A stretch of DNA of 64,000 bases from an uncultured Anaerolineales bacterium (lineage in GTDB: Bacteria > Chloroflexota > Anaerolineae > Anaerolineales > UBA11858), in the NCBI GenBank assembly GCA_964419495.1, contig CAYQQX010000008.1, positions 163-64,162 on the forward strand. Reading direction: 5' to 3'. Below, piece after piece: positions 1,085 through 57,724 of this stretch (position 1 is its first letter; each line of letters begins with the position of its first letter). Position numbers and translations under genes: made by a program. The notes under the pieces were generated by a model. The model was not told the origin of the DNA and searched no databases. It worked only from the letters and a program-made list of their open reading frames with translations.

Positions 1085-1342
1085 ATGATAAATAAGTTTA
1101 GAAAAAAACCAGTTGTTATTGAAGCAATTCAATTTGATGCCACAAGAAAAAACTTGGCAATTCTAATCGACTTTGTTGCACAACGAAACTTATATTTTGA
1201 TCCAGAAAAAGAACAAGTAATCATCAAAACGCTTGAAGGAGAACACATTGCATCCAAAGGAGATTGGATTATCAAGGGGGTTCAGGGTGAGTGCTATCCT
1301 TGCAAACCAGATATTTTTGAGCAGACTTATGAGCCTGTGTAA
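1085..1342 (+). CDS. small conserved hypothetical protein (phage-associated type, 85 aa)
   Basis: The internal ATG at 1085 is preceded by GAGGAA. Product: MINKFRKKPVVIEAIQF...KGDWIIKGVQGECYPCKPDIFEQTYEPV. I recall the KKPV.IEA.QF ... GDWI..G..GE.YPCKPDIF pattern from small phage or prophage proteins. The region is AT-rich. Confidence 0.6.
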   Translation: MINKFRKKPVVIEAIQFDATRKNLAILIDFVAQRNLYFDPEKEQVIIKTLEGEHIASKGDWIIKGVQGECYPCKPDIFEQTYEPV

Positions 1343-1393: not shown

Positions 1394-4300
1394 ATGATTG
1401 GGAAATCAAAGCAATTTTTAAGTGTAATTCTATTGATTTTTGTTTTCGCGATACCGGGAAAAGTTTGGGCAGAAGAAGAACTGCCCCCGGCCAATCCTGG
1501 AGGCCGTATCACTGGGCCGATTATCACTGGGGTGAATCCTGATCCAGATCCGACAGAAGGGCAGCTTTCTGAAATTGAAATTACTGGGGGTGTACAGCAG
1601 CAATCTCTAGGTGTGTCGGTGTCATCGGAAACACCCCCATTGATGAATGTTGCTGAACAAATGGTTATTGAGGCCCCTTTGATGGAAAGCTCCCTGGCAG
1701 TACCGATGCGCGTTCAAGATCCCTTGGATGTATCCTGTGGTGTGCAGGCGTTGGGTATGGTGATGGATTACCTGGCATTGGATGAAGGTCAAGAAGCTGC
1801 GCCAAGATCAGAAGAGCTTTTAACTGCACTCAAAGATGGGAGTCTGTTGCACGAGTGGGGTACAGGCGTGGAAGAGTTGGCCTATGTAGCTCGACAGAAA
1901 GGTTATGCTGGTTCATATAGTTTCCATGATTGGACGTTGGGGCAAATTCAAAATCAACTAGCGTTAGGCCGTCCGGTAGTTGTATCGCTGGGTGTAAATG
2001 GTGAAGGGAAGCCAGGACACTTTGTGACCGTTACCGGGATCTCAGAAGATGGTCAATGGGTGAGTTACAACGACCCTGCTAGAGGCAGAATCACAGTGCC
2101 AACGGCTGAATTCATGGTGCATTGGAGTTGGCAGGGGTACTCGGGTATGATAACCCAACGAGAAGCACTGGTGAAGAAAGCGGACCCCATGCTGCCAGTG
2201 ATGGGGATGTTCAGTGCTTTATCAGCGATGACGGTGATGTTCTCGAACCTATCGAAGCAGCAGCAAGGCTTATTGCAAGTGCTGCGTCCCAAAGGGGGCG
2301 GAGTTCCGCTGGTGAAGCGCTCGCGGGGTCGAAGCCCGCGAGTGCGCAACCTTGAGAAAGCTCAGCAGCTCCGCAGGCCTGGCAGTCGTGCCTGGCCTAC
2401 GGGAGAGGGTCGACCCGTACCGGGGAAGCTGAGTAGGCATAAACGACCCAATGCGGTGCGCCAGAAGAGGAAGAAACCTGTGCAGCGCGCGAGTGGATTG
2501 GTCACCTGGCGTTCGCAAGCGTTCCCTTCAGCAAAAGAGCAAAAAATGGCCGCTGATCAACTACACCGCAAACGCGCTGAAGTTGTGCAAGCCGAAAAAC
2601 AGTCCCGGGATCTGGTTTCGAGCGCCGAAGCTAGCGGCCACAGGTTGGTTTTCCGGGCACAGAGCGCGTTAGTTCAGTCACAAAGACACTCAGAAATCTA
2701 TCAGCAACAGGCGCGTCAGCGTGGTGACAGGACAGTGGCACAGGCGCGCAGAGAGTATGCCCAGGCGCAGAACAGGGCCAAGGTGATGCTCGCTCAGGCG
2801 CGCAGCCAGGGGGCTGCATGGGTGCGAACTGCAAATCGTAAACTGAATCAGGCGCGCAGTACGGCGGGGTCCTGGCTGAGCAATGCGGTACGTCGCGGGC
2901 GGGGCTTGACTCAATCGGCTAATCATCGACTCAGGCAGGCGTACAGAAGGGGGAAGTATTATTCACGCCGGGTATGGCGTCGCAGCGGCAGATGGGGCAA
3001 GTGGACAAAAATTTTTGGCCGCCGGCGAGGGCGCGGGAACCGGCTGGTAGCGGGCGCACAACGGAATGTTAGCAGAGAGCACCGTCGTTCCAGGAACTCC
3101 TCGGCCCGTTGGCGCAATCGCAAGATGTCCGGTGCGCAGGGTAATTTCAGCAGAGCAGTATACCGTCGAACCAGTAACTATTGGTTTTATAAGCGAGGGC
3201 GAGGTAACCGACTGGTGACCGATGCCCAGCGGGATGTAGTTAAAGCGCAGGGCCGGGCAAATCGCTTGATGGGGTCAACCCAGGCGCGCGCTAACCGTCT
3301 TATCAGCCAAGCCAGGAGTAAACTCAAACGAACTCAAGCCAAGGCTGCCCGATTGCTGGAAAAGTCCCGGCAACGCGGGCGCGAACTGGTTGGCAAGGCT
3401 AGCGGCGATCTGGCAGCCGCCCGTCGGCAGAAGCTGAGTCAGATCAAACAGGCTAAGAAGCGTGGTGCAGCACTGGTCGCCAAGGCGCGCAGTGCTGTGC
3501 AAAGGGCGCAAGCGAGGCTCATTCAACCGTTGGTACGCCAATTGGCTTTACGCAGAATAATTGAGCTGGAAGTGATCAAGAGGCGCATTGCTATGATGAT
3601 AGACTTGATGCGCCGCTTTTTGTCAAACCCTAAGCGTTTGGGCATTGGGGGTGGGATTAGACTGTCAGATCTGAGGGCCAGGGTCAGCCGGGCCGGAAAA
3701 TCGAGGTTTTCAAAACCCAGGTCGGTTGTAAAAACAATATCCAAACCCCCCTCCAAACCGGAGAAACGCGAACAGGAACCGGATCCGAGGCCAAGCTGGA
3801 GAGCCGCAGCGGCGTTAGCGGCCGAGCGCCAGGCCGCTGCCCGAGCTGCCCAGGCGGAGCAGGAGCGGGTAGCGCGTCTCAAGCGAGAAGCAGAGGCAGA
3901 AGCACAACGAAAAGCAACTGAGGAGGCAGCTCGCAATGCTGCAGCAGAAGCAGCAAATCAGAGAGCCGCAGCAGCGTTAGCGGCCGAGCGCCAAGCTGCT
4001 GCCCGAGCCGCCCAGGCGGAGCAGGAGCGGGTGGCTGCGCTGAAACGTAATCAGCGATCTCAATCCGCTGGGACAAGTCTCAATGCTGGGAGTGTGAAAG
4101 GAACGAATGGTGGGAATGCCAATTCAGTTGCTTCGAATCCACCTATCAGCCAACCTAAATCTGCAGCTAACGTGCAAGCAAGCCAGGCAACGCAAGCTGT
4201 CAATACACCTGGCGCTTCTGTTTTCGCTGGCGATTTAGGCGATGCCGAAGTGCGCGCACAAATTGCAGCGGTGGGCGGGGATCCCAACATGGATATTAAA

Positions 4301-6505
4301 CAGGCGCGTGCCATCATCCACAATGCTCGCATTGCCTCGAAATTTCGGGCACAGCAAATGGAACAGGAACGGTATCAGAACGCTAAAGAAAACCTGCCGA
4401 CTTTAATGGCGAAACTCCCTAAAGATGAACTCCAGGCTGGGTTTGGTATAACAGCTAATCAGCAAGTAGAGCAAGCGCGGCGTCAGCATGCTGTCGAGAA
4501 CCTGCCAGGGCTGTTTGTCAAGCTACCTCGAGAAGAATTATTTGCCGGATTGGGTTTGTTAGCTAAGCAGCCAGCCCAACAAAGAGAGCAGGATCGCCGC
4601 CAGAAAGCCGTAGCCAATTTGCCTGATTTGTTTGATATGCTGTCGCAAGATGAACTTTTAAGGGGTACAAATCTATTGGAGAGGCAGCAAAGAATGGCAA
4701 TGGCAAATTCGCTGGCCAGTTGGAAATCGGTGGATATGGCCAATACAGCAGAGGTCATTGCCAGAAGAGAGAGGAGTTGGTGGCAGAATGCGGTGATAGA
4801 CACTGCCAGCCTGTGGCAGAAATTCGATCAGTCTGCTGGTCAATGGGTCAGAGATAAATTCCGCAGACCCACGCAAAACTATGCCAATTGGGTGCAAAAT
4901 CCGAACCAACTGCTGGAGATAGACGCAGCGACGCGTAATGTGCAAACAGTTGCAGTGCCGTCTTTCTGGTTACACCCTGTTGACTGGTTGCAGTCCAAGC
5001 TGATCAATACGGGACGACAAAATAAACAAAACGAGAAAAAGATCATAGCAATTGCGAATCGCAATAATACTCTTACTTCGAGATCACAACAAGCTGTTGC
5101 ATCTCTATTTGCTAGCACAATTCAGTCGATTGGTATAGTTCACCAGCAATCAAGATCAAGAGCTATGGTTGGATTGGAACCTCTACCACAAGGAATTAAA
5201 AATCACTGGCATTTGGTTGGAAACACCTTCTTCAATGCATTAAATTTCGCAAGTATGGGCATATTAGATACGACGCGAAAGGCGTTTAGTTCAAACACGG
5301 CCCGATTGATATATGCATCTACATTAATGGCCATCAATGAGGCTATTGCGCACACTAGCCATCACAGTTTGCGTGTATTAACTGAGAAACGGTTTTCCCA
5401 TCGTTTGGGGGCATCAGCAGAAGCGGCTTTTGGTTTATTCAATCTTATTAGTTTTGGAGCACTGGGAGATATTCGATATGGGATGAAGGAGAAAGACTGG
5501 CTGCGCGTCGCTGGCGGAACTGTTGGGCTTATTCCCTTTTTAGGAATAGCAAGAGGCGGTCATGTATTATATCAAGGTGGAAAATCTGCATTACGAGCAG
5601 TGGGAACATCTCTGTTCACCCGTGGCGCTAGTGGTAGTATATCTCAAGCAGTTCGAGGATCTTGGGATGATGTTTTGCGTTTCTTGCGTCATCAGCGAGT
5701 ACAGGATTTTAGAAGAATTATGCCAATTGTGGGATATGATGTTGCCCGAGCACAGAAGCTATCATCATTGATCACCCAAGCTGATGAAATTAGTGATGGT
5801 ATCATGTTTGCACGTGAGATCAACCAAGGTATCGCGAACGATGATCCATTGCAAATTGCATTAGGATTATTCTTTGGTTTGACAACTGGGGTTGGCATAG
5901 CTACTAATAAGCTTACTCGTCCAGGATTATCAAATACCGAAATTTTTACACTATTACAACAGAGCAGTCGATCAGAAATCCAGATATTGGAAATTTATAA
6001 ATCTCGTTATGGTTATTCGACGACGGCAGAGATTAGAAAAGCATATCTAGATGCAAGTATATTTAGAAAACTTGAGTCGCCTCCAGGAATGTTAAACAAA
6101 TATGTACTTAGAGATCTATTTAGCAACGGATATGGATTGGACGATTTGCCAGAAGCCAAACTGGATGCATTGCTAGAATATTTCAAAACCCCTCAAGGCC
6201 AAGAATTTTGGTTAAATGATACTATGTATTTGGGGCGGCAGTTTGATATATATGAGTTTATGAGTGGGAATACAAGCTTGAATGGGATTTCACTCCATAG
6301 CTATGACAGCTATTCGGGATATTTGAATGAAGGCCTGATTGATTTAGCGAATTCCGTGGGCTATCAAGCACGCGGAATTTCAACAGTTATGGGAGTTGAA
6401 ACCAGCGTAACCATGAACGAGTATTTGTATTTGATGAGCAAGTATCAGAATATATTTGATCTAGATGGAAATAGGCTTACTATAGAAGGTTTTGCCCGCA
6501 AATAA
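1394..6505 (+). CDS. giant mosaic membrane/secreted protein (1703 aa) with an N-terminal C39-like cysteine peptidase and a polymorphic-toxin-like C-terminus
   Basis: RBS GGAAGGAG lies upstream. Signal peptide MIGKSKQFLSVILLIFVFAIPGKVWA. C39-like catalytic motifs QDPLDVSCGVQALGMVMDYL and GHFVTVTGISEDGQWVSYNDPARG. Hydrophobic helix MLPVMGMFSALSAMTVMFSNL. The rest comprises about 500 aa rich in Arg/Lys/Gln/Ala, internal repeats, a GGTVGLIPFLGIARGG motif and an AT-rich tail. Confidence 0.85.
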   Translation: MIGKSKQFLSVILLIFVFAIPGKVWAEEELPPANPGGRITGPIITGVNPDPDPTEGQLSEIEITGGVQQQSLGVSVSSETPPLMNVAEQMVIEAPLMESSLAVPMRVQDPLDVSCGVQALGMVMDYLALDEGQEAAPRSEELLTALKDGSLLHEWGTGVEELAYVARQKGYAGSYSFHDWTLGQIQNQLALGRPVVVSLGVNGEGKPGHFVTVTGISEDGQWVSYNDPARGRITVPTAEFMVHWSWQGYSGMITQREALVKKADPMLPVMGMFSALSAMTVMFSNLSKQQQGLLQVLRPKGGGVPLVKRSRGRSPRVRNLEKAQQLRRPGSRAWPTGEGRPVPGKLSRHKRPNAVRQKRKKPVQRASGLVTWRSQAFPSAKEQKMAADQLHRKRAEVVQAEKQSRDLVSSAEASGHRLVFRAQSALVQSQRHSEIYQQQARQRGDRTVAQARREYAQAQNRAKVMLAQARSQGAAWVRTANRKLNQARSTAGSWLSNAVRRGRGLTQSANHRLRQAYRRGKYYSRRVWRRSGRWGKWTKIFGRRRGRGNRLVAGAQRNVSREHRRSRNSSARWRNRKMSGAQGNFSRAVYRRTSNYWFYKRGRGNRLVTDAQRDVVKAQGRANRLMGSTQARANRLISQARSKLKRTQAKAARLLEKSRQRGRELVGKASGDLAAARRQKLSQIKQAKKRGAALVAKARSAVQRAQARLIQPLVRQLALRRIIELEVIKRRIAMMIDLMRRFLSNPKRLGIGGGIRLSDLRARVSRAGKSRFSKPRSVVKTISKPPSKPEKREQEPDPRPSWRAAAALAAERQAAARAAQAEQERVARLKREAEAEAQRKATEEAARNAAAEAANQRAAAALAAERQAAARAAQAEQERVAALKRNQRSQSAGTSLNAGSVKGTNGGNANSVASNPPISQPKSAANVQASQATQAVNTPGASVFAGDLGDAEVRAQIAAVGGDPNMDIKQARAIIHNARIASKFRAQQMEQERYQNAKENLPTLMAKLPKDELQAGFGITANQQVEQARRQHAVENLPGLFVKLPREELFAGLGLLAKQPAQQREQDRRQKAVANLPDLFDMLSQDELLRGTNLLERQQRMAMANSLASWKSVDMANTAEVIARRERSWWQNAVIDTASLWQKFDQSAGQWVRDKFRRPTQNYANWVQNPNQLLEIDAATRNVQTVAVPSFWLHPVDWLQSKLINTGRQNKQNEKKIIAIANRNNTLTSRSQQAVASLFASTIQSIGIVHQQSRSRAMVGLEPLPQGIKNHWHLVGNTFFNALNFASMGILDTTRKAFSSNTARLIYASTLMAINEAIAHTSHHSLRVLTEKRFSHRLGASAEAAFGLFNLISFGALGDIRYGMKEKDWLRVAGGTVGLIPFLGIARGGHVLYQGGKSALRAVGTSLFTRGASGSISQAVRGSWDDVLRFLRHQRVQDFRRIMPIVGYDVARAQKLSSLITQADEISDGIMFAREINQGIANDDPLQIALGLFFGLTTGVGIATNKLTRPGLSNTEIFTLLQQSSRSEIQILEIYKSRYGYSTTAEIRKAYLDASIFRKLESPPGMLNKYVLRDLFSNGYGLDDLPEAKLDALLEYFKTPQGQEFWLNDTMYLGRQFDIYEFMSGNTSLNGISLHSYDSYSGYLNEGLIDLANSVGYQARGISTVMGVETSVTMNEYLYLMSKYQNIFDLDGNRLTIEGFARK
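3026..3233 (+). repeat. intragenic duplication in the Arg-rich region (RGRGNRLV..AQR motif, copies 56 codons apart)
   Basis: cgagggcgcgggaaccggctggta.. at 3026 matches cgagggcgaggtaaccgactggtg.. at 3194. Peptides: GRRRGRGNRLVAGAQRNV and YKRGRGNRLVTDAQRDV. Confidence 0.7.
3799..4036 (+). repeat. two ~75-nt near-identical copies 162 nt (54 codons) apart inside the giant gene
   Basis: gagagccgcagcggcgttagcggccgagcgccaggccgctgcccgagctgcccaggcggagcaggagcgggt (3799-) matches the copy at 3961-. Both encode RAAAALAAERQAAARAAQAEQERVA. Confidence 0.85.
4385..4700 (+). repeat. three tandem 36-39-codon units (ENLPxLxxKLPxxELxxGxG...Q..R)
   Basis: Units: KENLPTLMAKLPKDELQAGFGITANQQVEQARRQH, AVENLPGLFVKLPREELFAGLGLLAKQPAQQREQDRRQK and AVANLPDLFDMLSQDELLRGTNLLERQQ. 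The E/A-N-L-P anchors are at 4388, 4496 and 4613. Confidence 0.75.
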
Positions 6506-6519
6506 AAGGATGTCAACAT

Positions 6520-7101
6520 ATGAGTTATTTTAAAGATATCGAAGAATCCAAGTTTGTTTCTTGTATTCGTGAAAATTATGATTTCTTAATTGATGAATAT
6601 GGATTTGTATATGAATCGAATGATAGTCGAGAACATCACTATAGATCTGAGAGATGTAGAATATCAATCTTTTACTACCGTTATGAGTTGGATATCTCAA
6701 TATCTCCACGAAAAGAAGGGCTGGAGCAAATTATCACAAAGGAAAGATTCTCAGGAAAAGATGTTGGGTTAGTAGCATTTCAGTTTGGTGCAGATGGGCC
6801 AACGCGCTTGTCGGACGCCCATGTGGAGAGGCTCATTGTTGCAGAACTTGAGTTGCGAGCAAAGCAGGTAATAGAGTATTGTAAACCTTTTCTGCAGGGA
6901 GATTTTTCCAATTGGCCTGCTCATTTTAGGTTATGGACTGTAGATCCGGAAGAAATTCGACATCGCTTTGAGGGGCTAAGTTTCGATGAACAATATGACC
7001 TATATTGGAACACGCCATCGGAGGAGACAAAATATTTGGACACTCTGTTACAGGGAAAGTTTATGAAAGAAAAGCTTAGAAGGAAAAAAGAAGGTAAGTA
7101 G
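6520..7101 (+). CDS. hypothetical protein (193 aa); immunity-protein candidate by position
   Basis: It starts 14 nt after the giant gene stop and shares the AT-rich composition of that gene's C-terminal module. There is no signal peptide. I recognise no family. Confidence 0.6.
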   Translation: MSYFKDIEESKFVSCIRENYDFLIDEYGFVYESNDSREHHYRSERCRISIFYYRYELDISISPRKEGLEQIITKERFSGKDVGLVAFQFGADGPTRLSDAHVERLIVAELELRAKQVIEYCKPFLQGDFSNWPAHFRLWTVDPEEIRHRFEGLSFDEQYDLYWNTPSEETKYLDTLLQGKFMKEKLRRKKEGK

Positions 7102-7315
7102 CATTCTCATACCCAACCGCTCCACCATCGCCGCCGTTAGGCAGTCATTTACAGCCTGCGTAACTGAGGCTGTTGTGTTGCCACTGAAGCCGGGGTTATT
7201 TGCTGGTGACCTGAGCAATGCTGAGTTTCAGCGCTCTTTTACTGCCATGACCAAGATTTGCAGCTATGCCGCAAAAACTATGAAAATACTGTGATAATAA
7301 AAGGATGTACTGACT

Positions 7316-7738
7316 ATGAATAACAAAAAAAGAAAAGAAATGGCTGCCATAGTACGAACAATAGCAACAGAATCTATCCGTAGTTCGGGAGACAGACTTG
7401 TGTTGGGCAGGCCCAATGATTGCATTCAAAATGCTCTGGACTATGGTGGTTTTTTCATTGATGCAGGGCCAGAAGTCATAAACATTCTTGATCAGGCGGG
7501 AATTGATCCAGCAATCGTTTATATTGAAGCGCTGAAAATAAAAATGGAAATGGGAATTCCGCGTGTTGATTTCATAAATATAAACCACGACGCGCAATTG
7601 AGTAAACAGGTGGATGATTGGAATGCCGATCCTTCAATTGCTATTCAGCAAATGCAATGGATGATCAAGAATGCTGGTGAATACGGATATCAAAGAAAGG
7701 GTGACAGTTGGATATTGAATGATGAGCAATCTGACTGA
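7316..7738 (+). CDS. hypothetical protein (140 aa)
   Basis: An AT-rich ORF with AAAAGGA upstream. It ends 9 nt before cpaB. I recognise no family. Confidence 0.5.
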   Translation: MNNKKRKEMAAIVRTIATESIRSSGDRLVLGRPNDCIQNALDYGGFFIDAGPEVINILDQAGIDPAIVYIEALKIKMEMGIPRVDFININHDAQLSKQVDDWNADPSIAIQQMQWMIKNAGEYGYQRKGDSWILNDEQSD

Positions 7739-7747
7739 AATCCAACC

Positions 7748-8410
7748 ATGCCCCCTCGCTCCCCCCTAACCACCCCTGACTGGCAGGCCGCTGTCCGTCG
7801 GCGCACGCAGTTCTACCTGCTGATCGCCTTCTTTCTGGCGGTCTTGTTTGGCGTGCTGGTTTTCCAGTTCTTCATGCAGCAGCGCGCTGCCCAGCCAGAG
7901 GTACTCACCAAGGCCGTCTTCGCTAACCAGGAGATCCCCATGGGGGAGGCCATCACTGCTGAAATGCTGGTGGAGCGCAATGTGCCCGGCGAGGCCGTGC
8001 CGCCGCTGCATTACAGTTTTATCGAACAGGTCGTAGGGCGGGTGACGCTCTACCCCCTGGTGGCCGGCGAGGTGATCCTGCCCGGTAAGCTGCTGGGCGA
8101 TACCGGTGGACCCGTTGCGCAGCGCTGTCCGTCTGGGTATTGGTGTATCAGCATCCCGGAGGCGTGGTTCGTAGCCACCCCGCCTGATCTGGCCGAAGGC
8201 GACAGCCTTGAGATCGCCGCGGTGCAGCCCGGCAACCCGGCCGATGAAGCTGGGTATATCGCCACCGAAGTGCTGGTCGTGGCCCTGCCCCATGGGGGTG
8301 AGGGCAGTGCTTATATACTGGCAGTCGATGACCAGGAGGCCTTGTCGATTTTGTACGCCCATGCCAATGAATTTAAGTTGCTGGTGCTGCTGCGCCCGGC
8401 GGGGAGTTAG
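7748..8410 (+). CDS. cpaB: Flp pilus assembly protein CpaB/RcpC-like (SAF domain)
   Basis: An N-terminal TM helix (FYLLIAFFLAVLFGVLVFQFF) is followed by a SAF-like segment (IPMGEAITAEMLVERNVP...VAGEVILPGKL). The gene is first in the tad gene order. Confidence 0.75.
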   Translation: MPPRSPLTTPDWQAAVRRRTQFYLLIAFFLAVLFGVLVFQFFMQQRAAQPEVLTKAVFANQEIPMGEAITAEMLVERNVPGEAVPPLHYSFIEQVVGRVTLYPLVAGEVILPGKLLGDTGGPVAQRCPSGYWCISIPEAWFVATPPDLAEGDSLEIAAVQPGNPADEAGYIATEVLVVALPHGGEGSAYILAVDDQEALSILYAHANEFKLLVLLRPAGS

Positions 8411-8412
8411 CC

Positions 8413-9177
8413 ATGGGCGTCGTCCTGGGAGTCTTCTCAGCAAAGGGTGGTGTAGGCAAGAGCCTGGTGGCTAGCAATCTGGGGGCGGTCTTCGCCGGAG
8501 GGCATCAGTTCCCCACGGCATTGATCGATCTCAATGCCGGTTTGGGGTCAGCCGATCTGCTCCTGGACTTGGAACCCGAACGCAGTTGGTCAGATTTATT
8601 GCTCGTAGCGGAGGAGCTCACCCCGCAGCATATCAACCTGGCCACCACAAAACATGAGTCTGGGCTGCATCTTCTGGCCTGCCCAGAAGTCCCTGATGAT
8701 CAGGTGAAGATCACCAGAGATTCGCTTGAAGCCTTGTTGAGCGCCTTTCGCCAGGAATACGCCGTGACCCTGTTGGATGTCCCTACCGGGATGGGAGTCA
8801 TCAATGTGTCTGCTTTCCATCTGGTCGATATTGCCCTGGTCTTGATCACACCCGATGCGCCTGCATTGCGGGCTACGCAAAGTTATCTGAACTCACTCTC
8901 CAAGCATGAAAGGCCGCTTGGTCTCGTGCTCAACCAATACGGACGCGGCGCACCGGTCAGCCCCAAGGAAATCGAGGCCCATTTCGAAAGGAGGCTCTAT
9001 GCCATTCTACCGGTAGATCAGAGCGCGGTCTGGGCTAACGTCAGCTACGGTCAGCCCTGCGCGCTCAGGCAAAGAAGGGGCTTGGGACGGGCTTTGCGAA
9101 GTTTATCGAAAACCGTGCTCAAGGTCGCCAAACGTTCGCGAAATTGGGATTACAGCGACCGTTTTAATAGTGCTTAG
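8413..9177 (+). CDS. tadZ: TadZ/CpaE-like ParA/MinD-family ATPase
   Basis: It has the deviant Walker A FSAKGGVGKSLVASNLG. It sits between cpaB and cpaF. Confidence 0.8.
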   Translation: MGVVLGVFSAKGGVGKSLVASNLGAVFAGGHQFPTALIDLNAGLGSADLLLDLEPERSWSDLLLVAEELTPQHINLATTKHESGLHLLACPEVPDDQVKITRDSLEALLSAFRQEYAVTLLDVPTGMGVINVSAFHLVDIALVLITPDAPALRATQSYLNSLSKHERPLGLVLNQYGRGAPVSPKEIEAHFERRLYAILPVDQSAVWANVSYGQPCALRQRRGLGRALRSLSKTVLKVAKRSRNWDYSDRFNSA

Positions 9178-9308
9178 GTAATCTCGTCCCCCCCTTTTTT
9201 TGGTAAATCCGATCTTTGGCTGAGCACTTACAACGGTGAAATAGTAGAGAAAAACTTATAAAAATTGTAATAGTCAGGAATAGATTGAACAAACACCAAA
9301 TGAAGTTT

Positions 9309-9347
9309 ATTCTCCTTCTGCCCCCCCAAAAATTCTGGGGGGAGAAT
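9309..9347. repeat. C-run/G-run hairpin repeat
   Basis: attctccttctg-CCCCCCC-aaaaattct-GGGGGG-agaat. It lies in the tadZ-cpaF spacer. Confidence 0.7.
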
Positions 9348-9359
9348 CATAGTTCAGTT

Positions 9360-9385
9360 CCCCCCAAGGTTGGGGGGTTAGGGGG
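9360..9385. repeat. C-run/G-run hairpin repeat
   Basis: CCCCCC-aaggtt-GGGGGG-tta-GGGGG. Confidence 0.7.
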
Positions 9386-9459
9386 CTGATTTGTTTAACC
9401 TTCCATTGACTAATTCAGAAAAAATAAAAATCATACCAATCTGCGTGAATCAGAGTCCT

Positions 9460-10746
9460 ATGAATAACGGAAACCTCCCTACGCTAGAAGACCGTCTGCA
9501 CCGCCTGGCCAGTGAACGCATTCAGGCCCAAGGCAATGGCGCCAGTGCCTCTATCGTGAAAACCGTGGAGCGTGATGCCTTAGCCCGTATGGTGTGGAAA
9601 CTGCTCCAGGATGAAGGCGAGATCCTGACCCGTAAAACGCAGGATGGATTGGTCACTTCAGTCGTCAACCGCATTCTTGGTTTGGGGCCGATTGAGCCTT
9701 ATCTCCACGATCCCGAAGTCACCGAGATTATGGTCAATGCACCGGACGAGATCTTCATCGAACGGGACGGCCGTCTAGAGCAAGTACAGGCCTCCTTTCG
9801 GGATGCCCGCCACATCTTACATGTCATTGAGCGCATCGTGGCACCCTTGGGCCGCAGGGTAGATGAATCCGTCCCCTATGTGGATGCCCGTCTGCCTGAT
9901 GGCTCGCGCGTCAATGCCATCATCCCCCCGCTGGCGTTACGTGCCCCATCATTGACCATCCGGCGATTTTCAGCTACACCATTCACGTTGCAACGCCTGG
10001 TTTCTTTAGATACATTAGATGATCGCATGGCGCGTTTCATCCAGGCTTGTGTGCGCGCCCGTTTGAACATACTCATCTCTGGGGGCACAGGTTCAGGGAA
10101 AACATCCACGCTAAACGCTATGGCACGCTGCATTCCTCACCATGAACGGCTCATTACCATTGAGGACACTGCTGAGTTGCAATTGATCGCTAAGAATCTT
10201 GTTTCTCTGGAAGCACGCCCGCAAAATATCGAAGGCAAGGGGGAAGTTACCATCCGTACACTGGTGCGAAATGCCTTGCGCATGAGACCCGACCGCATCA
10301 TTGTGGGTGAGGTGCGCGGCGCTGAGGCATTCGACATGCTGCAAGCCATGAATACTGGACACCCAGGTTCTCTCACCACTGTGCATGCAAATTCTCCCGA
10401 AGATGCTATCCGGCGTCTGGAGTCAATGATCCTGATGGCTAGCCTGGAACTTCCCCAACCGGCTATCAGAGAGCAGATCGCCAGTGCTATCGATATCATC
10501 TTGCAGCAGGAGCGCTTGCCAGGTGGGCGGCGCAAAATAATTTCGATTGCAGAAGTCGTTAGTGAAGATGGTTCAAGTTGGGGAGAGCTTCAAGTCAAAG
10601 TTCAAGAGATTTTCCGCTTTGAGCGCCAAGGGATGGATGATGAAGGTCTTGCCCTGGGGATATATCAGGCTACTGGATACCAACCCCAAAGTTTGGAAAC
10701 CATTCGTAAAGCGGGCATATCTATCCAGGCTGAATTAGATGAATAG
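9460..10746 (+). CDS. cpaF: CpaF/TadA type II/IV secretion ATPase
   Basis: Motifs: ITEIMVN, Walker A ISGGTGSGKTSTLNA, IVGEVRGAEAFDMLQAMNTGHPGSLTTVHAN. I chose the ATG at 9460 (MNNGNLPTLEDRL) over the TTG at 9391 given by the track. Confidence 0.9.
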   Translation: MNNGNLPTLEDRLHRLASERIQAQGNGASASIVKTVERDALARMVWKLLQDEGEILTRKTQDGLVTSVVNRILGLGPIEPYLHDPEVTEIMVNAPDEIFIERDGRLEQVQASFRDARHILHVIERIVAPLGRRVDESVPYVDARLPDGSRVNAIIPPLALRAPSLTIRRFSATPFTLQRLVSLDTLDDRMARFIQACVRARLNILISGGTGSGKTSTLNAMARCIPHHERLITIEDTAELQLIAKNLVSLEARPQNIEGKGEVTIRTLVRNALRMRPDRIIVGEVRGAEAFDMLQAMNTGHPGSLTTVHANSPEDAIRRLESMILMASLELPQPAIREQIASAIDIILQQERLPGGRRKIISIAEVVSEDGSSWGELQVKVQEIFRFERQGMDDEGLALGIYQATGYQPQSLETIRKAGISIQAELDE

Positions 10747-10766
10747 TTCAACAGTGGTGATATCTA

Positions 10767-10794
10767 CCCCCCCTGACCCTCCAAGATTGGGGGG
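10767..10794. repeat. C-run/G-run hairpin repeat
   Basis: CCCCCCC-tgaccctccaagatt-GGGGGG. It lies in the cpaF-tadB spacer. Confidence 0.65.
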
Positions 10795-10802
10795 AATTTG
10801 CT

Positions 10803-10849
10803 CCCCCAGACTTGTCCTGATCCTGTCGAAGGGATTGGGGGCCGGGGGG
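10803..10849. repeat. C-run/G-run hairpin repeat
   Basis: CCCCC-agacttgtcctgatcctgtcgaagggatt-GGGGG-cc-GGGGGG. Confidence 0.6.
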
Positions 10850-10866
10850 CATAACCAGGGATATCT

Positions 10867-11916
10867 ATGTTTCGTTGGTTAGGGCTGATTGGTTATTTGT
10901 TGGTGATTGCCTTCGCATGGCTGTTCCGCCAGGCTTTGTTCGATATGGCGCGAGAGCACTATGGATTCATTAGCGCACTCGTAGGAGGGCTGACGTTGTT
11001 TATACTCATCGTTCCCTTTATCGAAATAAGGCAAAGTCGCGGTTATGCTCGCGAATGGCGAGATCGTCTGGCAAGAAGAGATGCATTGCCGAAACCTCAA
11101 CCCTGGTGGCAGCGTTTGCGCCACTCTAATGACACGCTGCTGGACCGTTTGCTTGCCCCTATTTTTCGAAATCCAATTGGGCGGGGGCTGATGAGTTATT
11201 GGGCTGATGCCGGTTTTGGCGCGCATCCGGCCATTTTTCTTGTGGCCATTATATTTACTGCTTTGGGTGGATACCTGGTTGGCTATTTATCCACTCGCAG
11301 TGTGCTGTTAGGGGGTTTTGGGGCATTTCTGTCCTTGATTGCCTTGGCAGTATTGACCTTCACGCGAGCCAGACTCCAGCGCAGACGATTTAGCGATCAA
11401 TTTCCCGATGTCCTCGACCGGATAGCAGACTCCCTCCAGGCTGGTTTCTCGTTACCTCAGGCGATTAATTTCGTCATTCCAAATCTCTTTGAGCCCAGTG
11501 CTTCTGAGATGGCCCAGGTATCGGCTCAAATTGCCCTGGGATTTTCTGTGGATGATGCGCTGAGCGAGTTGTATCAACGCCGCCCCAGCGAAGATGTGCG
11601 CCTCTTGGTTGAAGGCCTGACTTTGCAACGCCAGGTTGGCGGGGATATGCCTGCAATGATGCGGGATATGGCCTCCTTTGTCCGCGGGCGGGTTGAGTTG
11701 GAGAATGAAGTGCGCACACTTACATCCCAGGGTCGTCTTTCGGCCATTGTGATTGCGTTATTGGTGCCGGTGTCGATCGGCGTGCTTTCCATGTTTCCGG
11801 GATATGTTGATGTCCTTTTTCAAACAACAGCAGGAAATCTTGTACTGATCGTTGCTGGAATTCTTGAGCTCATTGGTGCGGCGATTGTGGCACGCCTAGT
11901 TCGGGTTGAATATTAA
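10867..11916 (+). CDS. tadB: TadB-like type II secretion system F-family membrane protein
   Basis: A polytopic membrane protein with a cytoplasmic T2SSF-like segment (FPDVLDRIADSLQAGFSLPQAI...LTLQRQVGGDM). It follows cpaF. Confidence 0.8.
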   Translation: MFRWLGLIGYLLVIAFAWLFRQALFDMAREHYGFISALVGGLTLFILIVPFIEIRQSRGYAREWRDRLARRDALPKPQPWWQRLRHSNDTLLDRLLAPIFRNPIGRGLMSYWADAGFGAHPAIFLVAIIFTALGGYLVGYLSTRSVLLGGFGAFLSLIALAVLTFTRARLQRRRFSDQFPDVLDRIADSLQAGFSLPQAINFVIPNLFEPSASEMAQVSAQIALGFSVDDALSELYQRRPSEDVRLLVEGLTLQRQVGGDMPAMMRDMASFVRGRVELENEVRTLTSQGRLSAIVIALLVPVSIGVLSMFPGYVDVLFQTTAGNLVLIVAGILELIGAAIVARLVRVEY

Positions 11917-12129
11917 TTACTCATGTTACGCACATATGGTTAGGTTGCTTTGCTTCCAAGCCCGATTAATCGGGCGTTGATAGATAGCATGGGGATTTCA
12001 TCCCCGTGCGAGTCCGGAGCGGATTTTCGTAACATTCTTGAAATTTTCAACAATCGTCGAATTCGCTTGCCATGGGCGCCCTTTCGGCGAGCGATCACGA
12101 CAATCATGTTGGATGATTAACAGATAACT

Positions 12130-12999
12130 ATGTTCATCAGCATTGCTTTAGCGCTAACACTAGGCGGTTTTGTATTCGTGTTGCTATTATCACTGGATGT
12201 CCTTTTTGACCATCCGGCGAGAATACGAATGCAGCAGATATTTGACCTAATGCCAGAGAAGCGACGATCTTCATGGCAACAAATTTTTCGTACAGCATTG
12301 GGGGCGGTTCGTCCGCCACAATTTCTTGATGCCTGGGTGGGGCAAAAGGAACTGCACTGGGCTGGATTTTCTCTGGATGTTGTAGAGTATCGAGCGCTTT
12401 GGTGGCTGGTGTGCCTCTTTGGTGGCGTAGCAGGCATTTCGGTTGCGGCCGCAAACCAGTGGCGCGGCGTGAGCATGGCATTTGGGTTCATGTTAATGCT
12501 CGCAATTGCTGGAAGTCCCTATCTTTATTTGCGCTGGCGCATACGCCGGCGCACGCGCGCCATTGCTAAAAGTCTCCCGGATTTCATGGATTTGCTCACT
12601 TTTACCGTGCAAGCGGGTCTAGGGTTTACACCAGCCTTGCAGCGGGTTTGCGCCAGGTATCCAGGTCCGCTGGGTGAAGATCTGCGGCGTATTCTGGTTC
12701 AGCTTGAGCTAGGTTTCTCGCGTGCTGAAGCGTTGGATGAATTTGTGCGTCGATCTCCCTCCCCCGAGATCCAAAACTTTGTTGAAGCTGTCAAACTGAC
12801 CGAACAGCTAGGCACTTCCCTGGCTCGTACATTGGGAATTCAGGCCAAGATGATGCGCCTCACTCGCCGACAGCGTGCCCAGGCTGCGGCGCAGACTGCG
12901 CCAATCCGCATCATCCCCGCGCTGGTTTTTTTCTTCTTACCGAGCCTGCTGCTGATTTATCTCGCCCCACCAATCATCAATTTCTTTATGCGTCAATGA
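12130..12999 (+). CDS. tadC: TadC-like type II secretion system F-family membrane protein
   Basis: T2SSF-like segment LPDFMDLLTFTVQAGLGFTPALQRV...AVKLTEQLGTSLARTL plus terminal TM helices. Confidence 0.8.
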   Translation: MFISIALALTLGGFVFVLLLSLDVLFDHPARIRMQQIFDLMPEKRRSSWQQIFRTALGAVRPPQFLDAWVGQKELHWAGFSLDVVEYRALWWLVCLFGGVAGISVAAANQWRGVSMAFGFMLMLAIAGSPYLYLRWRIRRRTRAIAKSLPDFMDLLTFTVQAGLGFTPALQRVCARYPGPLGEDLRRILVQLELGFSRAEALDEFVRRSPSPEIQNFVEAVKLTEQLGTSLARTLGIQAKMMRLTRRQRAQAAAQTAPIRIIPALVFFFLPSLLLIYLAPPIINFFMRQ

Positions 13000-13451
13000 C
13001 TAAGAAAAAGATGCGCGTAAATCTGCGCCAATCCGCGTCCAAAAGAGTAGTTCCCGCTCAGACACTGGTTGAGTTTGCATTAGTACTACCGATTTTGTTG
13101 CTGCTTATGGTAGCCCTGATTGATTTCGGCGTGATTATGCACGCCCAAATTGTAGTTACCAATGCAGCTTGGGAAGGCGCGCGGGCTGGGGCTACGATTG
13201 TCAACCCTAAACAGGGGGATGAGGAAATCATCGGCGCAATCCACCGGGCTTCTTATGGACTCAACCTGGATAATCTTGAGATCGATATTGATCCAGAACA
13301 AGATGAAGCCCCTCGCAACCAGCCCTTCCCCGCGCCGCGCGGCGAACCCCTGACGGTAACTGTTTTATACGATATTCAACTCGCCTTCCCCAGTATCAAC
13401 TTCCCTGTTTCAGGCAAAGCTGTCACCATGATGGAGTACCAAAACCCATGA
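12996..13451 (+). CDS. tadE: TadE-like pseudopilin/pilus assembly protein
   Basis: TadE-type N-terminus AQTLVEFALVLPILLLLMVALIDFG. It overlaps tadC by 4 nt. The true start may be an internal ATG. Confidence 0.75.
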   Translation: MTKKKMRVNLRQSASKRVVPAQTLVEFALVLPILLLLMVALIDFGVIMHAQIVVTNAAWEGARAGATIVNPKQGDEEIIGAIHRASYGLNLDNLEIDIDPEQDEAPRNQPFPAPRGEPLTVTVLYDIQLAFPSINFPVSGKAVTMMEYQNP

Positions 13452-14047
13452 ACTTAGAACAACGTGGCCAGATCCTGATTGTGGTTGCCATATTATTATT
13501 GGTGGTCTTGTTTTTTTTGGCTGTGATCATCGATGGGGCGCGTTTGATGGTTGAAAAACATGAATTGAATCGCGCAGCCGATGCCGCTGCCAGGGCGGGG
13601 TTAGGGGTTGTTGGCGACCGTATGGTTACGCAAGTGGTGGTTGCCCAAACAGCCGCAGCCCTAAATCTGTGTACGCCAATTCCTGAGCATAATCTGCTAA
13701 CACCTGAGTATGTACCTCCTCCACCATGTACACCGACACCCATGCCCAGCGATTTCTATGCCTGGCTCAAGGATTACCACCGAGCCACCCTGGTTTCACC
13801 AGCCTTGCAGACATCGGTAGCTAGCCAGGTTCAGGCTTATGCCGAGAACAACAACATGGGGTTATCCAACCCTGCTGTGGTTGAGTTGGAAGTAGAATAC
13901 CCAGACGAGTATCACATCAAAGATCGTGACTTAAATATACTCGTTCGCATCCGACGTCAGGTGGTTGTCATATTTGCCGGCTTGTTGGGACTCGATCAGG
14001 GGGAGTTATCAGGCGATACCAAACAGAGTATCCCACAGAGGAAATGA
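13448..14047 (+). CDS. tadG: TadG/TadE-G-like pilus assembly protein
   Basis: N-terminus RGQILIVVAILLLVVLFFLAVIIDGARLMVEKHELNRAADAAARAG, the putative Flp pilus-assembly TadE/G-like pattern. It overlaps the preceding gene by 4 nt. Confidence 0.7.
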   Translation: MNLEQRGQILIVVAILLLVVLFFLAVIIDGARLMVEKHELNRAADAAARAGLGVVGDRMVTQVVVAQTAAALNLCTPIPEHNLLTPEYVPPPPCTPTPMPSDFYAWLKDYHRATLVSPALQTSVASQVQAYAENNNMGLSNPAVVELEVEYPDEYHIKDRDLNILVRIRRQVVVIFAGLLGLDQGELSGDTKQSIPQRK

Positions 14048-16059: not shown

Positions 16060-17016
16060 ATGATTTCTTCTTTTAAATCTAAGTTCGGATTAATACTGTT
16101 AAGTACGATTATCTCTGCTATTCTATTTATTGGAGCATTTGAGTTGGTTAATTCACTGCTCTATTATCGTTGGAAATCAGATTTCGATAATCAGGGATGG
16201 TTTGGCAAGATTACTATTCCCTCACCAAATCCAATATTGATGTGGGAATACCGCCCCTATGGGGAGAATGAAGGGATTAAAACCAATCGATATGGATTTA
16301 GAGATTACGATTACGAATCGACTACAAAACCAGAGGATACGTTACGTATCGCTTTTGCGGGTGACTCAGTTACTTTGGGGTTAGGTGTTGATTTTGATGA
16401 CACCTTTGTTCAGCGGTTTAATATGGAAGCAGGTAAATTAGGATTAGCCTACACAGTTCAAGGTCTCAATTTTGGCATTGATGGTTATAACACTCCCCAA
16501 ATTTACGAAATGATAAGGACAAAGGTAGTGGAGTTTTCTCCTGACAATGTGGTCTATGTCATGTGCATGAATGATTTTGATTTCACCCAAGCCTCTGGTG
16601 ACAAAATCCTTTATTTCCAAAAACCTAAGAGCTTCTTCTTAAATATTGCAGAAAAAGCGTATCGCAAAGTAATTGGGGGCGATTTCCATGAATACTTTTT
16701 CAATAAAAATAAAGATGTTGTTTTCGAAAAGATTCTTAATATGCAAGCTGACTTAGCACTTCAAGGGATTGATTTTCAAGTAGTTTTGCTGCCAATTTTT
16801 TCGGGCACCTTTCAGTCCTATCCTCTGGAAGATATGAACAGGGAAATTGCTTTATTTCTTGAGGAGAATGATATTGACTATCTCAATTTACTTGAGGCCT
16901 TTAGGGAAACGGGCAATTTACCAACAGCTTATGCTTCTGGGGTGTGGCATCCAGACCCTCCAGGATATCAGTTTATCGCTGAGCAGCTAATATCATGGAT
17001 TCTGATGGGTGAGTGA
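16060..17016 (+). CDS. SGNH/GDSL-family hydrolase with an N-terminal membrane anchor
   Basis: Block I IAFAGDSVTLGLGV and a late WHPDPPGY block. The gene is AT-rich. Confidence 0.65.
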   Translation: MISSFKSKFGLILLSTIISAILFIGAFELVNSLLYYRWKSDFDNQGWFGKITIPSPNPILMWEYRPYGENEGIKTNRYGFRDYDYESTTKPEDTLRIAFAGDSVTLGLGVDFDDTFVQRFNMEAGKLGLAYTVQGLNFGIDGYNTPQIYEMIRTKVVEFSPDNVVYVMCMNDFDFTQASGDKILYFQKPKSFFLNIAEKAYRKVIGGDFHEYFFNKNKDVVFEKILNMQADLALQGIDFQVVLLPIFSGTFQSYPLEDMNREIALFLEENDIDYLNLLEAFRETGNLPTAYASGVWHPDPPGYQFIAEQLISWILMGE

Positions 17017-51982: not shown

Positions 51983-52142
51983 GATGGTTAAATATGGTAC
52001 CAAAGAGAAAATAGGGGAGTTTATTGAAAAAGGGTGAAATTGCGTTTCAAGCGAGATTGAGTCTACTTGTAGCTTTATCGATGATCATCAGCACTCTCTT
52101 GATGTGAAAATAATCACGAATGGTACAGTTGTCCTTTTAGTT

Positions 52143-52158
52143 TGTGATATTTGTCACA
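52143..52158. promoter_or_regulatory. CRP/FNR-family consensus site TGTGA-N6-TCACA upstream of hdrA
   Basis: tgtga-tatttg-tcaca is perfect in both half-sites. It lies about 155 nt upstream of the hdrA start, in a 396-bp AT-rich leader. Confidence 0.4.
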
Positions 52159-52312
52159 TGTCATATTGGTTGAAATCCGTCAATATTACTGTTATTCACA
52201 TCATTATAGCTCACCGTAGATTCTATGAACCTCACTAAGTAATAATCGGCTTGTTTGCAGGTTGAAAGAACCAATCTAGGGGAGCTCACATCTTCATGGG
52301 AGGTTGGTTTTC

Positions 52313-54340
52313 ATGGAAGCTCAAAATCCCTTCATGGGAGTACATGGCTCGCATCAACAGCAGGAAGTTCGAGTGGGTGTCTATGTATGTCGTTGTGGAA
52401 CCAACATTGGGGGTATTGTAGATGTTGAACAAGTTGTAGATTTTGTTTCCAATTTACCTTGTGTGGCAGTTGCGCGAGAATATTCCTATATGTGTTCCGA
52501 TCCTGGTCAGGGAATGATAAAAGGGGATATCGAAGCACATGACCTTAACCGCGTAGTGGTGGCATCTTGTTCACCAATGATGCATGAAAGCACATTCAAA
52601 ACCGCCTGTTCAGAAGCTGGAATAAATCCATTTTTCTTCCAAATGACCAATATCCGAGAGCATGTCTCCTGGGTGCATTCTTCTGATCCTGTGTTAGCAA
52701 CCAAAAAGGCAAAAGATCTTGTATATGCTGCTGTCAATCGTGTTATTGAACATTTGCCTTTGGAAGAACGCCAATCGGATGTGAAGCAATCTGCATTAGT
52801 AGTTGGGGCTGGAATAGCCGGAATTGAGGCTGCATTACGAATTGCAGATTCAGGGAAGAAAGTTTACCTGGTAGAGAAGCAATCTGGGATAGGTGGGCAT
52901 ATGGCAAGATTATATAAAACCTTCCCAACGTTAGATTGTGCGGCTTGAATACTCACACCCAAAATGGTGTCCGTGGGACGCCACAAAAACATCACACTGC
53001 TTACTTACAGCGAAGTAGAGAGTGTCTCTGGGGTCGTGGGTAATTTCAAAGCAAAAATTCGTAAAAAGGCGAAATATGTAAATAGAGAATTATGCAATGG
53101 CTGCGGTACCTGTGTTGAAAAATGTCCGTGGAAAAATATACCGGACGAATTTGAATATGGTCTTAGCAACAGACCTGCTATTCACTTTCATTACAGCCAG
53201 GCTGTGCCCAAAATACCCGTTATTGATAAAGAGCATTGCGCATATTTCAAGAATGGAAAATGTAAAGCCTGCGAAAAATTTTGTCAGAGGGATGCTATAG
53301 ATTTTGAGCAAACTGATGAAATTATTGAAATTGACGTTGGTACCATAGTTTTAGCTACCGGTTTCAAAGATTTTGATCCCTCTGAATCCCCTCATTATGG
53401 CTATGGTACTTATGGAAATATATTGACTAGCAGAGAATTTGAACGCCTGATCAATACCAGCGGACCAACTTTAGGTGAGGTGCATCTCTCCAATGGAGAT
53501 AAACCAAAGCGGGTTGCGATTATTCATTGTGTTGGTAGTCGCGGGGATAAGAATCAATACTGTTCGCGAGCTTGCTGTATGTATTCGTTAAAACTGGCTC
53601 ACCTGGTCAGGTCTGTGATTGGAGCTGAGGTGGTTGAGTTTTACCGTGATATGCGCGCTTTTGGTAAAGAGTATGAATCTTTTTATGAGAAGGTGAGAGA
53701 AGAACAGGTTGAGTTTGTACGCTACGACAGAGATATTCAGGTTTCCAAGGTTGAAAACCAGCTAACCGTTGAAACTCAAAATTTATTTACAGGTGAAAAC
53801 CAAGCTGAGAAGGTAGACATGGTGATTCTCAGTACAGGCTTTGAACCACAAACCGATCAAAAGACGGTCGCCAGCACATTTGGAGTAAGCCTTAGCCCAG
53901 ATGGTTTTTTCCAGGAAAAACACCCCAAATTAGCCCCAGTTGAAACAGCAACAGATGGTGTATTCCTGGCGGGAGCATGCCAAGGTCCAAAGGACATCCC
54001 GGATTCAGTGGCCCATGGAAGTGCGGCCGCGGCGGCTGCTCTGGCTTTGATGGATGCTGGATCTGTAACCTTAGAACCCTACACCGCTTATATTGATCCT
54101 GAAAAATGCAGTGGCTGCCTGATATGTGCCAATAATTGCCCTTATCATGCAATTGATGTGGTTACCTCCAATGGCCACAAAGTATCTCAAATTAATGAGA
54201 TCTCTTGCAAAGGGTGTGGAACATGCGTGGCCGCTTGCCCAGCTGGCGTTGCCAGACAGCATGGCTTTACAAACGACCAGATCATCGCTGAAATTGAAGG
54301 TTTACTCAAGATGGGACTTGTTGAGGAGACAATGGTATGA
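52313..54340 (+). CDS. hdrA: selenocysteine-containing HdrA-family flavoprotein (675 aa, U at codon 212)
   Basis: Track ORFs 52304..52948 and 52964..54340 are in one frame, separated by TGA 52946-52948. Read-through gives KTFPTLDCAA-U-ILTPKMVSVGRHKN, the conserved HdrA motif where Cys homologues have C. It has the N-terminal VGVYVCRCGTNIGG, FAD fold ALVVGAGIAGIEAAL and ferredoxin domains. Confidence 0.85.
52965..52983 (+). promoter_or_regulatory. SECIS-like hairpin for hdrA
   Basis: UGGUGUCC-GUG-GGACGCCA, an 8-bp stem including one G-U pair, starts 17 nt after the UGA. It lies in a 59-nt block identical to the hdrL copy. Confidence 0.55.
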
Positions 54341-57714: not shown

Positions 57715-57724
57715 GAGCTGAATT

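Follow-up and report, generated by a model that had tools for sequence, protein, structure and literature searches.

A variable C-terminal cassette, probably of polymorphic-toxin type, in a C39-headed giant protein of an uncultured Anaerolineales bacterium

Does the end of a giant gene, where the base composition changes in mid-frame, carry an exchangeable toxin with its immunity gene directly behind it? The question arises in a 64,000-nt stretch of DNA from an uncultured Anaerolineales bacterium (the window; all coordinates are positions in it, and amino acid (aa) numbers are residues of the giant protein). Here, an open reading frame (ORF) of 1703 aa runs uninterrupted, by ORF reading, over 1394-6505 on the plus strand and is followed after a 14-nt gap by ORF2 (6520-7101, plus strand), which encodes a protein of 193 aa without signal peptide, the putative cognate immunity protein. 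An earlier sequence-only reading proposed a polymorphic-toxin-like cassette at this site; the observation from which it started is confirmed, and its toxin/immunity interpretation is partly supported. In our judgement, the protein is probably polymorphic-toxin-like, with 4955-7101 as its variable C-terminal cassette plus the cognate small gene. The cassette most likely combines an undescribed pre-toxin module and a terminal domain without known relatives, carried on an unusual membrane-anchored, C39-headed Anaerolineales protein.

Compositional switch and replacement of the C-terminal part

The compositional switch is apparent both in GC content, calculated in 300-nt windows, and in GC at third codon positions (GC3), calculated in 100-codon bins. 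GC is 0.49-0.66 over 2100-4950 and then 0.36-0.47 over 4950-6450, and GC3 within the giant ORF is 0.44-0.62 for aa 201-1200 versus 0.26-0.40 for aa 1201-1703, with the drop at about nt 5000. These values agree with the change from GC-rich to AT-rich DNA without a frame break that had been claimed at about 5.0 kb, both measures falling at about 4950-5000. The AT-richness was further said to continue through both downstream ORFs and to end abruptly at cpaB, and indeed GC remains at 0.32-0.45 over 6450-7800 and GC3 is 0.34 in ORF2 and 0.35 in ORF3 (7316-7738, plus strand; 140 aa), before GC rises to 0.55-0.65 and GC3 to 0.76 in cpaB (7748-8410, plus strand; Pfam SAF domain), the right border of the AT-rich block. 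The left border, an intergenic gap between comM and orfU (894-1084, no strand), is very AT-rich as described (GC 0.27 at 901-1200). Since the first 200 codons of the giant ORF, which hold a C39-like domain, are also low in GC3 (0.39-0.42), the giant gene is a three-part mosaic. Low GC3 recurs in the unrelated tails of two related loci, L017 (tail 0.33 and downstream ORF 0.37, versus 0.64 in cpaB) and L016 (0.44 and 0.41, versus 0.71). Other low-GC stretches of the window are a GDSL-lipase gene (16060-17016, GC 0.38) and a block of about 10 kb (~52000-62000, GC 0.40-0.45); with such patchiness at 16-17 kb and 52-62 kb, low GC alone is not unique to the block and therefore proves little.

Replacement of the C-terminal part is seen directly when syntenic loci are compared. 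Scanning one genome per GTDB species with the N-terminal domain (N-domain) of the giant protein gave 25 loci, all in metagenome-assembled genomes of Anaerolineales or other Chloroflexota, and the closest N-domains are those of L016 (80% identity) and L017 (77%). Common to these two loci and the window are comM, orfU, the N-terminal C39-like domain, ORF3, and the Tad operon, whereas everything from about residue 282 of the giant protein to just before ORF3, including the small ORF, is unrelated to the window. L017 is fully syntenic, with comM, orfU, a homologue of the giant gene, an ORF of 221 aa, an ORF3 homologue, and cpaB. At the DNA level (blastn), positions 1-2238 and 7302-13998 of the window align with L017 at 76-80% identity and nothing aligns between them, so that 2239-7301 of the window stands opposite an unrelated stretch at 2403-5297 of L017, and the breakpoint falls at a hydrophobic segment of the giant protein. 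L016 carries a third unrelated C-terminal part. The exchangeable C-terminal module proposed by the sequence-only reading is thus borne out by relatives with N-domains 77-80% identical and with unrelated C-termini and downstream ORFs, and the comparison of relatives' C-termini that it had suggested as a check shows that collinearity does not extend to all homologues at the family level. When the C-termini of 21 family proteins were cut after the membrane anchor and clustered, they formed one conserved subgroup of ten and eleven singleton types.

As to the make-up of the L016 variant (3300-4280 and 4270-5322), its giant protein ends in a second Peptidase_C39_2 domain and is followed by a lipoprotein-like, beta-propeller-like ORF of 350 aa, so that a tail of extracytoplasmic type is paired with a neighbour that is exported. 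For the window relative to the L003 allele, a single clean recombination breakpoint at 5.0 kb was considered and rejected; instead, synonymous divergence (dS) forms a mosaic along the whole gene.

The pre-toxin-like module, the terminal domain, and ORF2

The cassette begins with a junction motif, VPSFWLHPVDWLQSKLINTGR (aa 1188-1208; 4955-5017, plus strand), which coincides with the GC3 drop and is a degenerate form of the PSLLSDPLGW[LA]Q..LINAGR seen in L015b and L041, the window having PSFWLHPVDW. Behind it lies an undescribed pre-toxin-like module of about 210 aa (aa 1302-1513; 5297-5932, plus strand), delimited by its HMMER relatives. Its signatures are AIAHTS, AEAxFGLxNLxSxGALGDxRYG, DWLRVxxGxxGxIP, HADExxD, a Gly-rich hydrophobic helix, and TNKLTRPGLS, and no match to it was found in Pfam, NCBIfam, or the PDB. 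A partial tandem duplicate of its N-terminal half precedes it (aa 1233-1296; 5090-5281, plus strand; profile match to positions 6-66), and indels occur around this duplicate because it has undergone different deletions or fusions in the L001 and L007 alleles.

The module is reused in other proteins. With aa 1201-1703 as query, HMMER run exhaustively against 1.84 billion representative proteins retrieved one full-length allele (P0005) and six distant proteins (P0007-P0012) that match aa ~1290-1410 only (E 8e-12 to 1e-4), with P0008 additionally matching aa ~1450-1510. L041, from a metagenome scan, is collinear with the window from its junction motif PSLLSDPLGWAQASLINAGR to TNPLVRP and then diverges. 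Together, the module stands in front of at least five unrelated tails: that of P0010 has a weak PIN match (21.6 bits, below the Pfam cut-off), those of P0009, P0011, and P0014 contain an HExxH motif, and that of L041 has a weak RelA_SpoT match (Pfam E 0.009), its top PDB match being, non-significantly, the alarmone synthetase YwaC. No type was recognised for the tails of P0007 and P0008. In P0007 and P0010, an Rhs-type ...DPSG[LM] tip lies directly before the module. Because it occurs before different tails in one family as well as on Rhs tips, the module works like a pre-toxin domain, though it is no detectable member of PT-TG.

P0014 corresponds to the end of a gene cut off by the edge of its contig, and its mid region is 65% identical to that of the neighbouring paralog L015b, which has the same C39-like head as the window and a different tail. 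We rejected P0014 as an orphan cassette, since its ORF is open to the contig end and it therefore represents the end of a full-length paralog. The two family paralogs of L015 (1-1476 and 4401-7456) lie on the same strand 2.9 kb apart with mid regions of this 65% identity; their tails differ, and each has its own small overlapping ORF behind. A word-indexed search of 5.8 billion proteins returned nothing for the tail or the module alignment, which, given the relatives found by the exhaustive HMMER search, reflects the index and not true absence. In viral contigs, the module gave two 31-aa matches inside a phage tail-like protein, which we judged to be chance, and neither the N-domain nor ORF2 had a match.

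The sequence-only reading had placed a motif resembling the pre-toxin domain PT-TG at ~5511-5585. The peptide, VAGGTVGLIPFLGIARGGHVLYQGG (aa 1372-1396; 5507-5581, plus strand), lies 4 nt off this position, and it does belong to a real conserved module in front of swappable tails. Its assignment to PT-TG (PF14449) did not hold: this family has no match at E<=1 in the whole 1703-aa protein, at E<=10 in the 503-aa tail, a 100-aa motif piece, or the 303-aa end, or in P0007-P0012, with the limit that HMMER filters may hide very weak matches. Nor is the TG itself conserved. VAGGTVG of the window is VAGGVFG in both other alleles, the T being replaced by V, and in an alignment of nine sequences, G, L/I, and P of the peptide are conserved and the TG column is not. 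At the family level, the swap point lies after TNKLTRPGLS (aa 1513), about 120 aa beyond the peptide. A swap at the motif itself is not seen among the three alleles of the window tail, which are collinear.

The last 190 aa (aa 1514-1703; 5933-6505, plus strand) form the terminal domain, a putative toxin whose only detected relatives are its own alleles, in three types. The window type is identical in L006. In the L001-L005 type, found at the same Tad-adjacent site, tail and ORF2 are both 76% identical to those of the window, and in the L007-L012 type, found in a different genomic context, they are 67% and 65% identical, respectively. Variation is concentrated in the first ~65 aa of the domain, which are hypervariable (43% identity, most variable at aa 1519-1578), the remainder being 85-90% identical. 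A search of the genome contigs with the tail gave no relative, and its alignment found none in the metagenome contigs. No significant PDB match came from sequence or profile searches with the tail, the module, ORF2, or any of four foreign tails, and an AF2 model of ORF2 (pLDDT 61) retrieved nothing from the PDB at E<=0.001 by Foldseek. A separate observation concerns the stretch GMLNKYVLRDLFSNGYGLDDL (aa 1561-1594, ~6074-6175), which resembles the multiply repeated unit of P0006, a protein of 2470 aa that carries the Pfam 'Decapeptide repeat region' and BspA-type leucine-rich repeats.

ORF2 is linked to the tail and varies with it. It has four homologues in 5.8 billion protein clusters, each directly behind the same tail. 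A small ORF without signal peptide starts within -17 to +17 nt of the stop codon in 8/8 loci, the three allele types of the window tail being counted separately; these downstream ORFs are mutually unrelated unless the tail is shared, and every complete module copy has an unrelated small ORF at once after it. One of them has a weak Imm-NTF2-2 match. Of the toxin/immunity layout claimed by the sequence-only reading, the 14-nt gap is confirmed, and tail and ORF2 co-vary; neither partner matches a known toxin or immunity family. At 0.73-0.79, the dS of tail and ORF2 is roughly double the 0.28-0.44 of the five adjacent Tad genes, indicating that a diverged allele was imported; cpaB of the L001 type is 97-98% identical to the window cpaB. 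Both tail and ORF2 are under purifying selection, with a ratio of nonsynonymous to synonymous divergence (dN/dS) of ~0.2 (ORF2 0.21), which indicates that both are functional.

Carrier architecture and genomic neighbourhood

The giant protein starts with a predicted Sec-type signal peptide (aa 1-26, ...KVWA/EE; 1394-1471, plus strand; Kyte-Doolittle peak 2.21 at aa 8-26), whose presumed cleavage site was read by eye. It is followed by a C39-like papain-fold peptidase domain (1691-2128, plus strand), which the sequence-only reading had recognised correctly: Peptidase_C39_2 (PF13529) matches aa 101-229 with E 2.5e-9 and 38.3 bits versus a Pfam cut-off of 24, with weaker Pfam scores for C70 (29.2 bits) and C39 (22.6 bits). 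The putative catalytic motifs SCGVQALGM (Cys115), PGHFVTV (His209), and YNDP (Asp227) are invariant between the window and L015b, and the CGVQALGM pattern is found in 25 Chloroflexota loci. A hydrophobic segment, likely a transmembrane (TM) helix, comes next (aa 266-286; 2189-2251, plus strand; Kyte-Doolittle 1.56), with a net charge of +1 before it and +11 after. The following region (aa 288-943; 2255-4222, plus strand) is extremely basic, of low complexity, and coiled-coil-like (26% R+K versus 5% D+E over aa 330-800), and contains a 25-aa repeat twice (direct repeats 3799-3873 and 3961-4035). Allele comparison defines a further segment up to the junction (aa 944-1187; 4223-4954, plus strand), with a conserved FAGDL..NPNMDIKQAR stretch and three NLPxLFxKLPxxEL repeats, the number of which varies among alleles.

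This order of features suggests that the C39-like domain and the tail probably lie on opposite sides of the membrane. The C39-like domain had been proposed as the peptidase that releases the toxin; since it stands behind a signal peptide and is split from the tail by the hydrophobic segment, with the +11 stretch placing the tail on the other side, such a role is doubtful.

In the reading that we favour, that of a polymorphic-toxin-like protein, the constant head would comprise the signal peptide, a C39-like papain-fold ectodomain, and one hydrophobic anchor, and would be separated from the junction by the long polybasic spacer. The junction motif, apparently related to the Rhs PxxxxDPxGL tip, would lead into the ~210-aa pre-toxin-like module, rich in Gly-zipper-like hydrophobic helices, and then into the 190-aa terminal domain, which ORF2 would bind and neutralise in the producer cell. 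The cassette would be exchanged by recombination among strains and species, and such exchange would explain its foreign, AT-rich composition. Toxicity of the terminal domain, an immunity role of ORF2, and a contribution of the Gly-rich module to membrane insertion or translocation are inferences, as is any route by which the tail would leave the cell. A doubtful proposal for the last step is an undescribed delivery architecture of monoderm-like filamentous Chloroflexota, in which a membrane-anchored C39-headed carrier, encoded as the first gene of the Tad operon, would present a cytoplasmic exchangeable tail that reaches neighbours via or with the Tad machinery or another conduit, and in which membrane translocation would fall to the Gly-zipper-like module, which Rhs tips have as well.

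The surroundings of the cassette are conserved. Upstream of the AT-rich spacer, a comM/yifB-type gene ends at ~893 (minus strand), and orfU (1085-1342, plus strand; 85 aa, GC3 0.29) is a conserved flank that belongs to a widespread, phage-borne family of unknown function (phrog_419, E 1.9e-34) and is 90% identical at the same position in L017. ORF3, which the sequence-only reading had included in the AT-rich cassette as a trailing small ORF, is AT-rich, yet it behaves as a conserved flank, with 83-86% identity in L016 and L017 and dN/dS of 0.13-0.16. Its homologues lie at 5303-5731 in L017 and at 588-1031 in L016, in the latter upstream of the giant gene instead of downstream. Over its full length, ORF3 aligns with the last ~170 aa of the L017 giant protein (N-terminal half 39% identical, E 2e-9). 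On account of its conservation and this alignment, we regard it as a free-standing relative of a C-terminal domain and not as part of the swapped block. It has no match in Pfam, NCBIfam, PHROGs, or PADLOC.

Downstream, cpaB starts 9 nt past ORF3 and opens the Tad pilus operon, which continues with a ParA-like cpaE, cpaF/T2SSE, two T2SSF genes (tadB, tadC), and TadE/TadG-like pseudopilins. No markers of type V, VI, or VII secretion systems are present in the locus, to which the Tad operon is adjacent. Genes with a C39-like head adjoin cpaB-cpaE-cpaF in 7 of the ~16 loci with enough flank, in the same orientation in six (L016, L017, L019, L023, L024, L035) and divergently in one (L032), and these Tad-adjacent loci span Chloroflexota whose cpaB are just 35-63% identical. 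A functional link between the family and Tad pili is therefore possible. We know of no killing function of Chloroflexota Tad pili.

Some further sequence traces were noted around the block. The 12-mer ATAAAAGGATGT occurs at 6502-6513 and again at 7297-7308, a few bases before the ATG of ORF2 and of ORF3, and the pair may reflect either a common ribosome-binding context or what is left of a cassette junction. Stretches from the start of cpaB, its first 30-90 nt (CACCACCCCTGACTGGCA...), are found as extra remnants beside the cassettes of relatives, in L016 at 470-500, 1053-1142, and from 5333 onward and in L001 at 3097-3117, 3297-3323, and from 3604 onward, with no extra copy in the window; these remnants resemble scars left where insertion or recombination recurred just before cpaB. 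The block is not marked by tRNA genes, by tandem repeats, or by a surplus of promoter- or terminator-like sites, and no further copies of any cassette part occur elsewhere in the window.

Competing explanations and relation to known systems

Several results weigh against a polymorphic toxin. The terminal domain and ORF2 have no family or fold match in Pfam, NCBIfam, PHROGs, PADLOC, or the PDB, and a single-sequence AF2 model of the tail (pLDDT 36) was unusable and was discarded. PT-TG matches neither the window protein nor its six relatives; the PIN, RelA_SpoT, and Imm-NTF2-2 matches are all below Pfam cut-offs, and HExxH is a motif alone. In the largest N-domain subgroup, the architecture is conserved and non-polymorphic, with a second C39-like domain at its end; the three alleles of the window tail are collinear, and divergence is mosaic along the gene in place of a clean 5.0-kb breakpoint. 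Furthermore, the positive-inside rule would place the whole protein beyond aa 286 in the cytoplasm of the producer, without a recognised export route, which keeps alive the idea of an effector that acts inside the cell.

According to that idea, the protein would be an intracellular conflict or abortive-infection effector, a type I membrane protein in which the C39-like ectodomain would act as a sensor or be triggered from outside and the variable cytoplasmic tail would kill or arrest the producer, with ORF2 as an antitoxin-like restraint. The predicted topology (+11 net charge, 26% R+K) fits this proposal, as do the same layout of ectodomain, TM helix, basic stretch, module, and tail in L041 and P0008, the lack of signal peptides in ORF2 and the other downstream ORFs, and the cytoplasmic mode of action of PIN- and RelA/SpoT-like tails, which serve in defence systems too. 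We nevertheless regard it as unlikely, since PADLOC gave no match, the module also stands directly behind Rhs-type DPxGL tips, a feature of exported toxins, the tail of L016 is followed by a lipoprotein-like exported protein, and strain-to-strain replacement of the tail together with the downstream ORF is the pattern of polymorphic toxins. The same joint change of downstream ORFs with tails speaks against an envelope or adhesion protein linked to the Tad pilus, with a C-terminus that evolves fast and is partly disordered; ORF2 would then be an unrelated accessory, and the variability would result from weak constraint and surface-antigen-like diversification. Such a protein would account for the position of family genes just upstream of cpaB-cpaE-cpaF, for the conserved architecture of the largest subgroup with its second C39-like domain at the end, and for the large share of low-complexity sequence. 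We accord it little probability, however, given the purifying selection and long invariant stretches of tail and ORF2 and the occurrence of the module in Rhs-tip cassettes with enzyme-like tails.

It is very improbable that the compositional switch carries no evolutionary signal and is chance or a by-product of amino acid content, with an Arg/Ala/Gly-rich centre next to an ordinary tail. The high-GC centre of the gene is indeed due to the basic region (aa 288-943), which encodes R/A/Q-rich low-complexity sequence, and the window has other low-GC patches. However, third codon positions drop too, so the switch is not a mere effect of amino acid composition; ORF2 and ORF3 are equally low before the sharp rise in cpaB, the drop is repeated in the unrelated L016 and L017 cassettes, and in the window it coincides with the junction motif and falls inside the block replaced relative to L017. 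The GC3 data already contradict this explanation.

If the polymorphic-toxin reading is true, the locus would represent a new carrier architecture for such toxins in a poorly studied, mostly uncultured phylum. The pre-toxin module common to a C39-headed carrier and to Rhs tips would then be new as well and would provide a search handle for further cassettes, and a toxin/immunity pair without known relatives might possess a new biochemical activity. The recurrent link to the Tad operon would also be of interest, given the Tad-like contact killing of Myxococcus.

Polymorphic toxin systems, as defined by Zhang, Iyer, Aravind and colleagues in 2012 (PMC3482391), start with a part for trafficking, continue with a central part and pre-toxin domains, and end in a variable toxin domain, with the gene for immunity next to them. 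The locus resembles them in its constant head, variable C-termini at orthologous loci, reused pre-toxin-type module, linked downstream ORF that switches with the tail, and cassette of foreign composition. It differs from them in that no catalogued trafficking, pre-toxin, toxin, or immunity domain is detected save the C39-like fold, and in that head, TM helix, and polybasic region predict a cytoplasmic tail, which fits no listed export route. With PT-TG (PF14449), the module shares its position immediately before exchangeable toxin-like tails, as well as a short conserved Gly/Pro motif, GxIPxxG, whereas the absence of an HMM match at E<=10 in seven proteins, its length of ~210 aa, and its own signatures (AIxHTS, LGDxRYG, DWLRV, HADE) set it apart. 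The N-terminal domain is akin to the C39/C70 (AvrRpt2) papain-fold peptidases, scoring above the Pfam cut-off with the Cys/His/Asp motifs kept, and the second C39_2 domain that forms the C-terminal tail of L016 recalls the Tox-PL-C39 domain of polymorphic toxins (PMC3482391). In contrast to bacteriocin-processing C39 peptidases, neither the giant protein nor its neighbours contain an ABC_tran or ABC membrane domain, and a leader-cleaving or toxin-releasing role is not evident because the domain is N-terminal, follows a signal peptide, and has a membrane segment between itself and the tail.

The sole likeness to the Tad-like killing apparatus Kil of Myxococcus, whose variability resides in minor-pilin tip complexes, is a variable, possibly antagonistic protein near a Tad operon (PMC8460266, PMC12075869). 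Closer parallels exist with Rhs elements, in which a GC-rich core is followed by an AT-rich extension and a downstream ORF (dsORF) (PMC11083783). The giant protein lacks YD/RHS repeats or an RHS core (Pfam), and the junction of the window is degenerate (HPVDW). It is Rhs-like, however, in the GC-rich body of the giant gene versus its AT-rich extension and downstream ORF, in the PSLLSDPLGW at the junction of its relatives L015b and L041, and in the module that stands behind genuine Rhs-type tips in P0007 and P0010. The locus is a clear non-proteobacterial case of this Rhs-like pattern, in which an AT-rich extension follows a GC-rich body.

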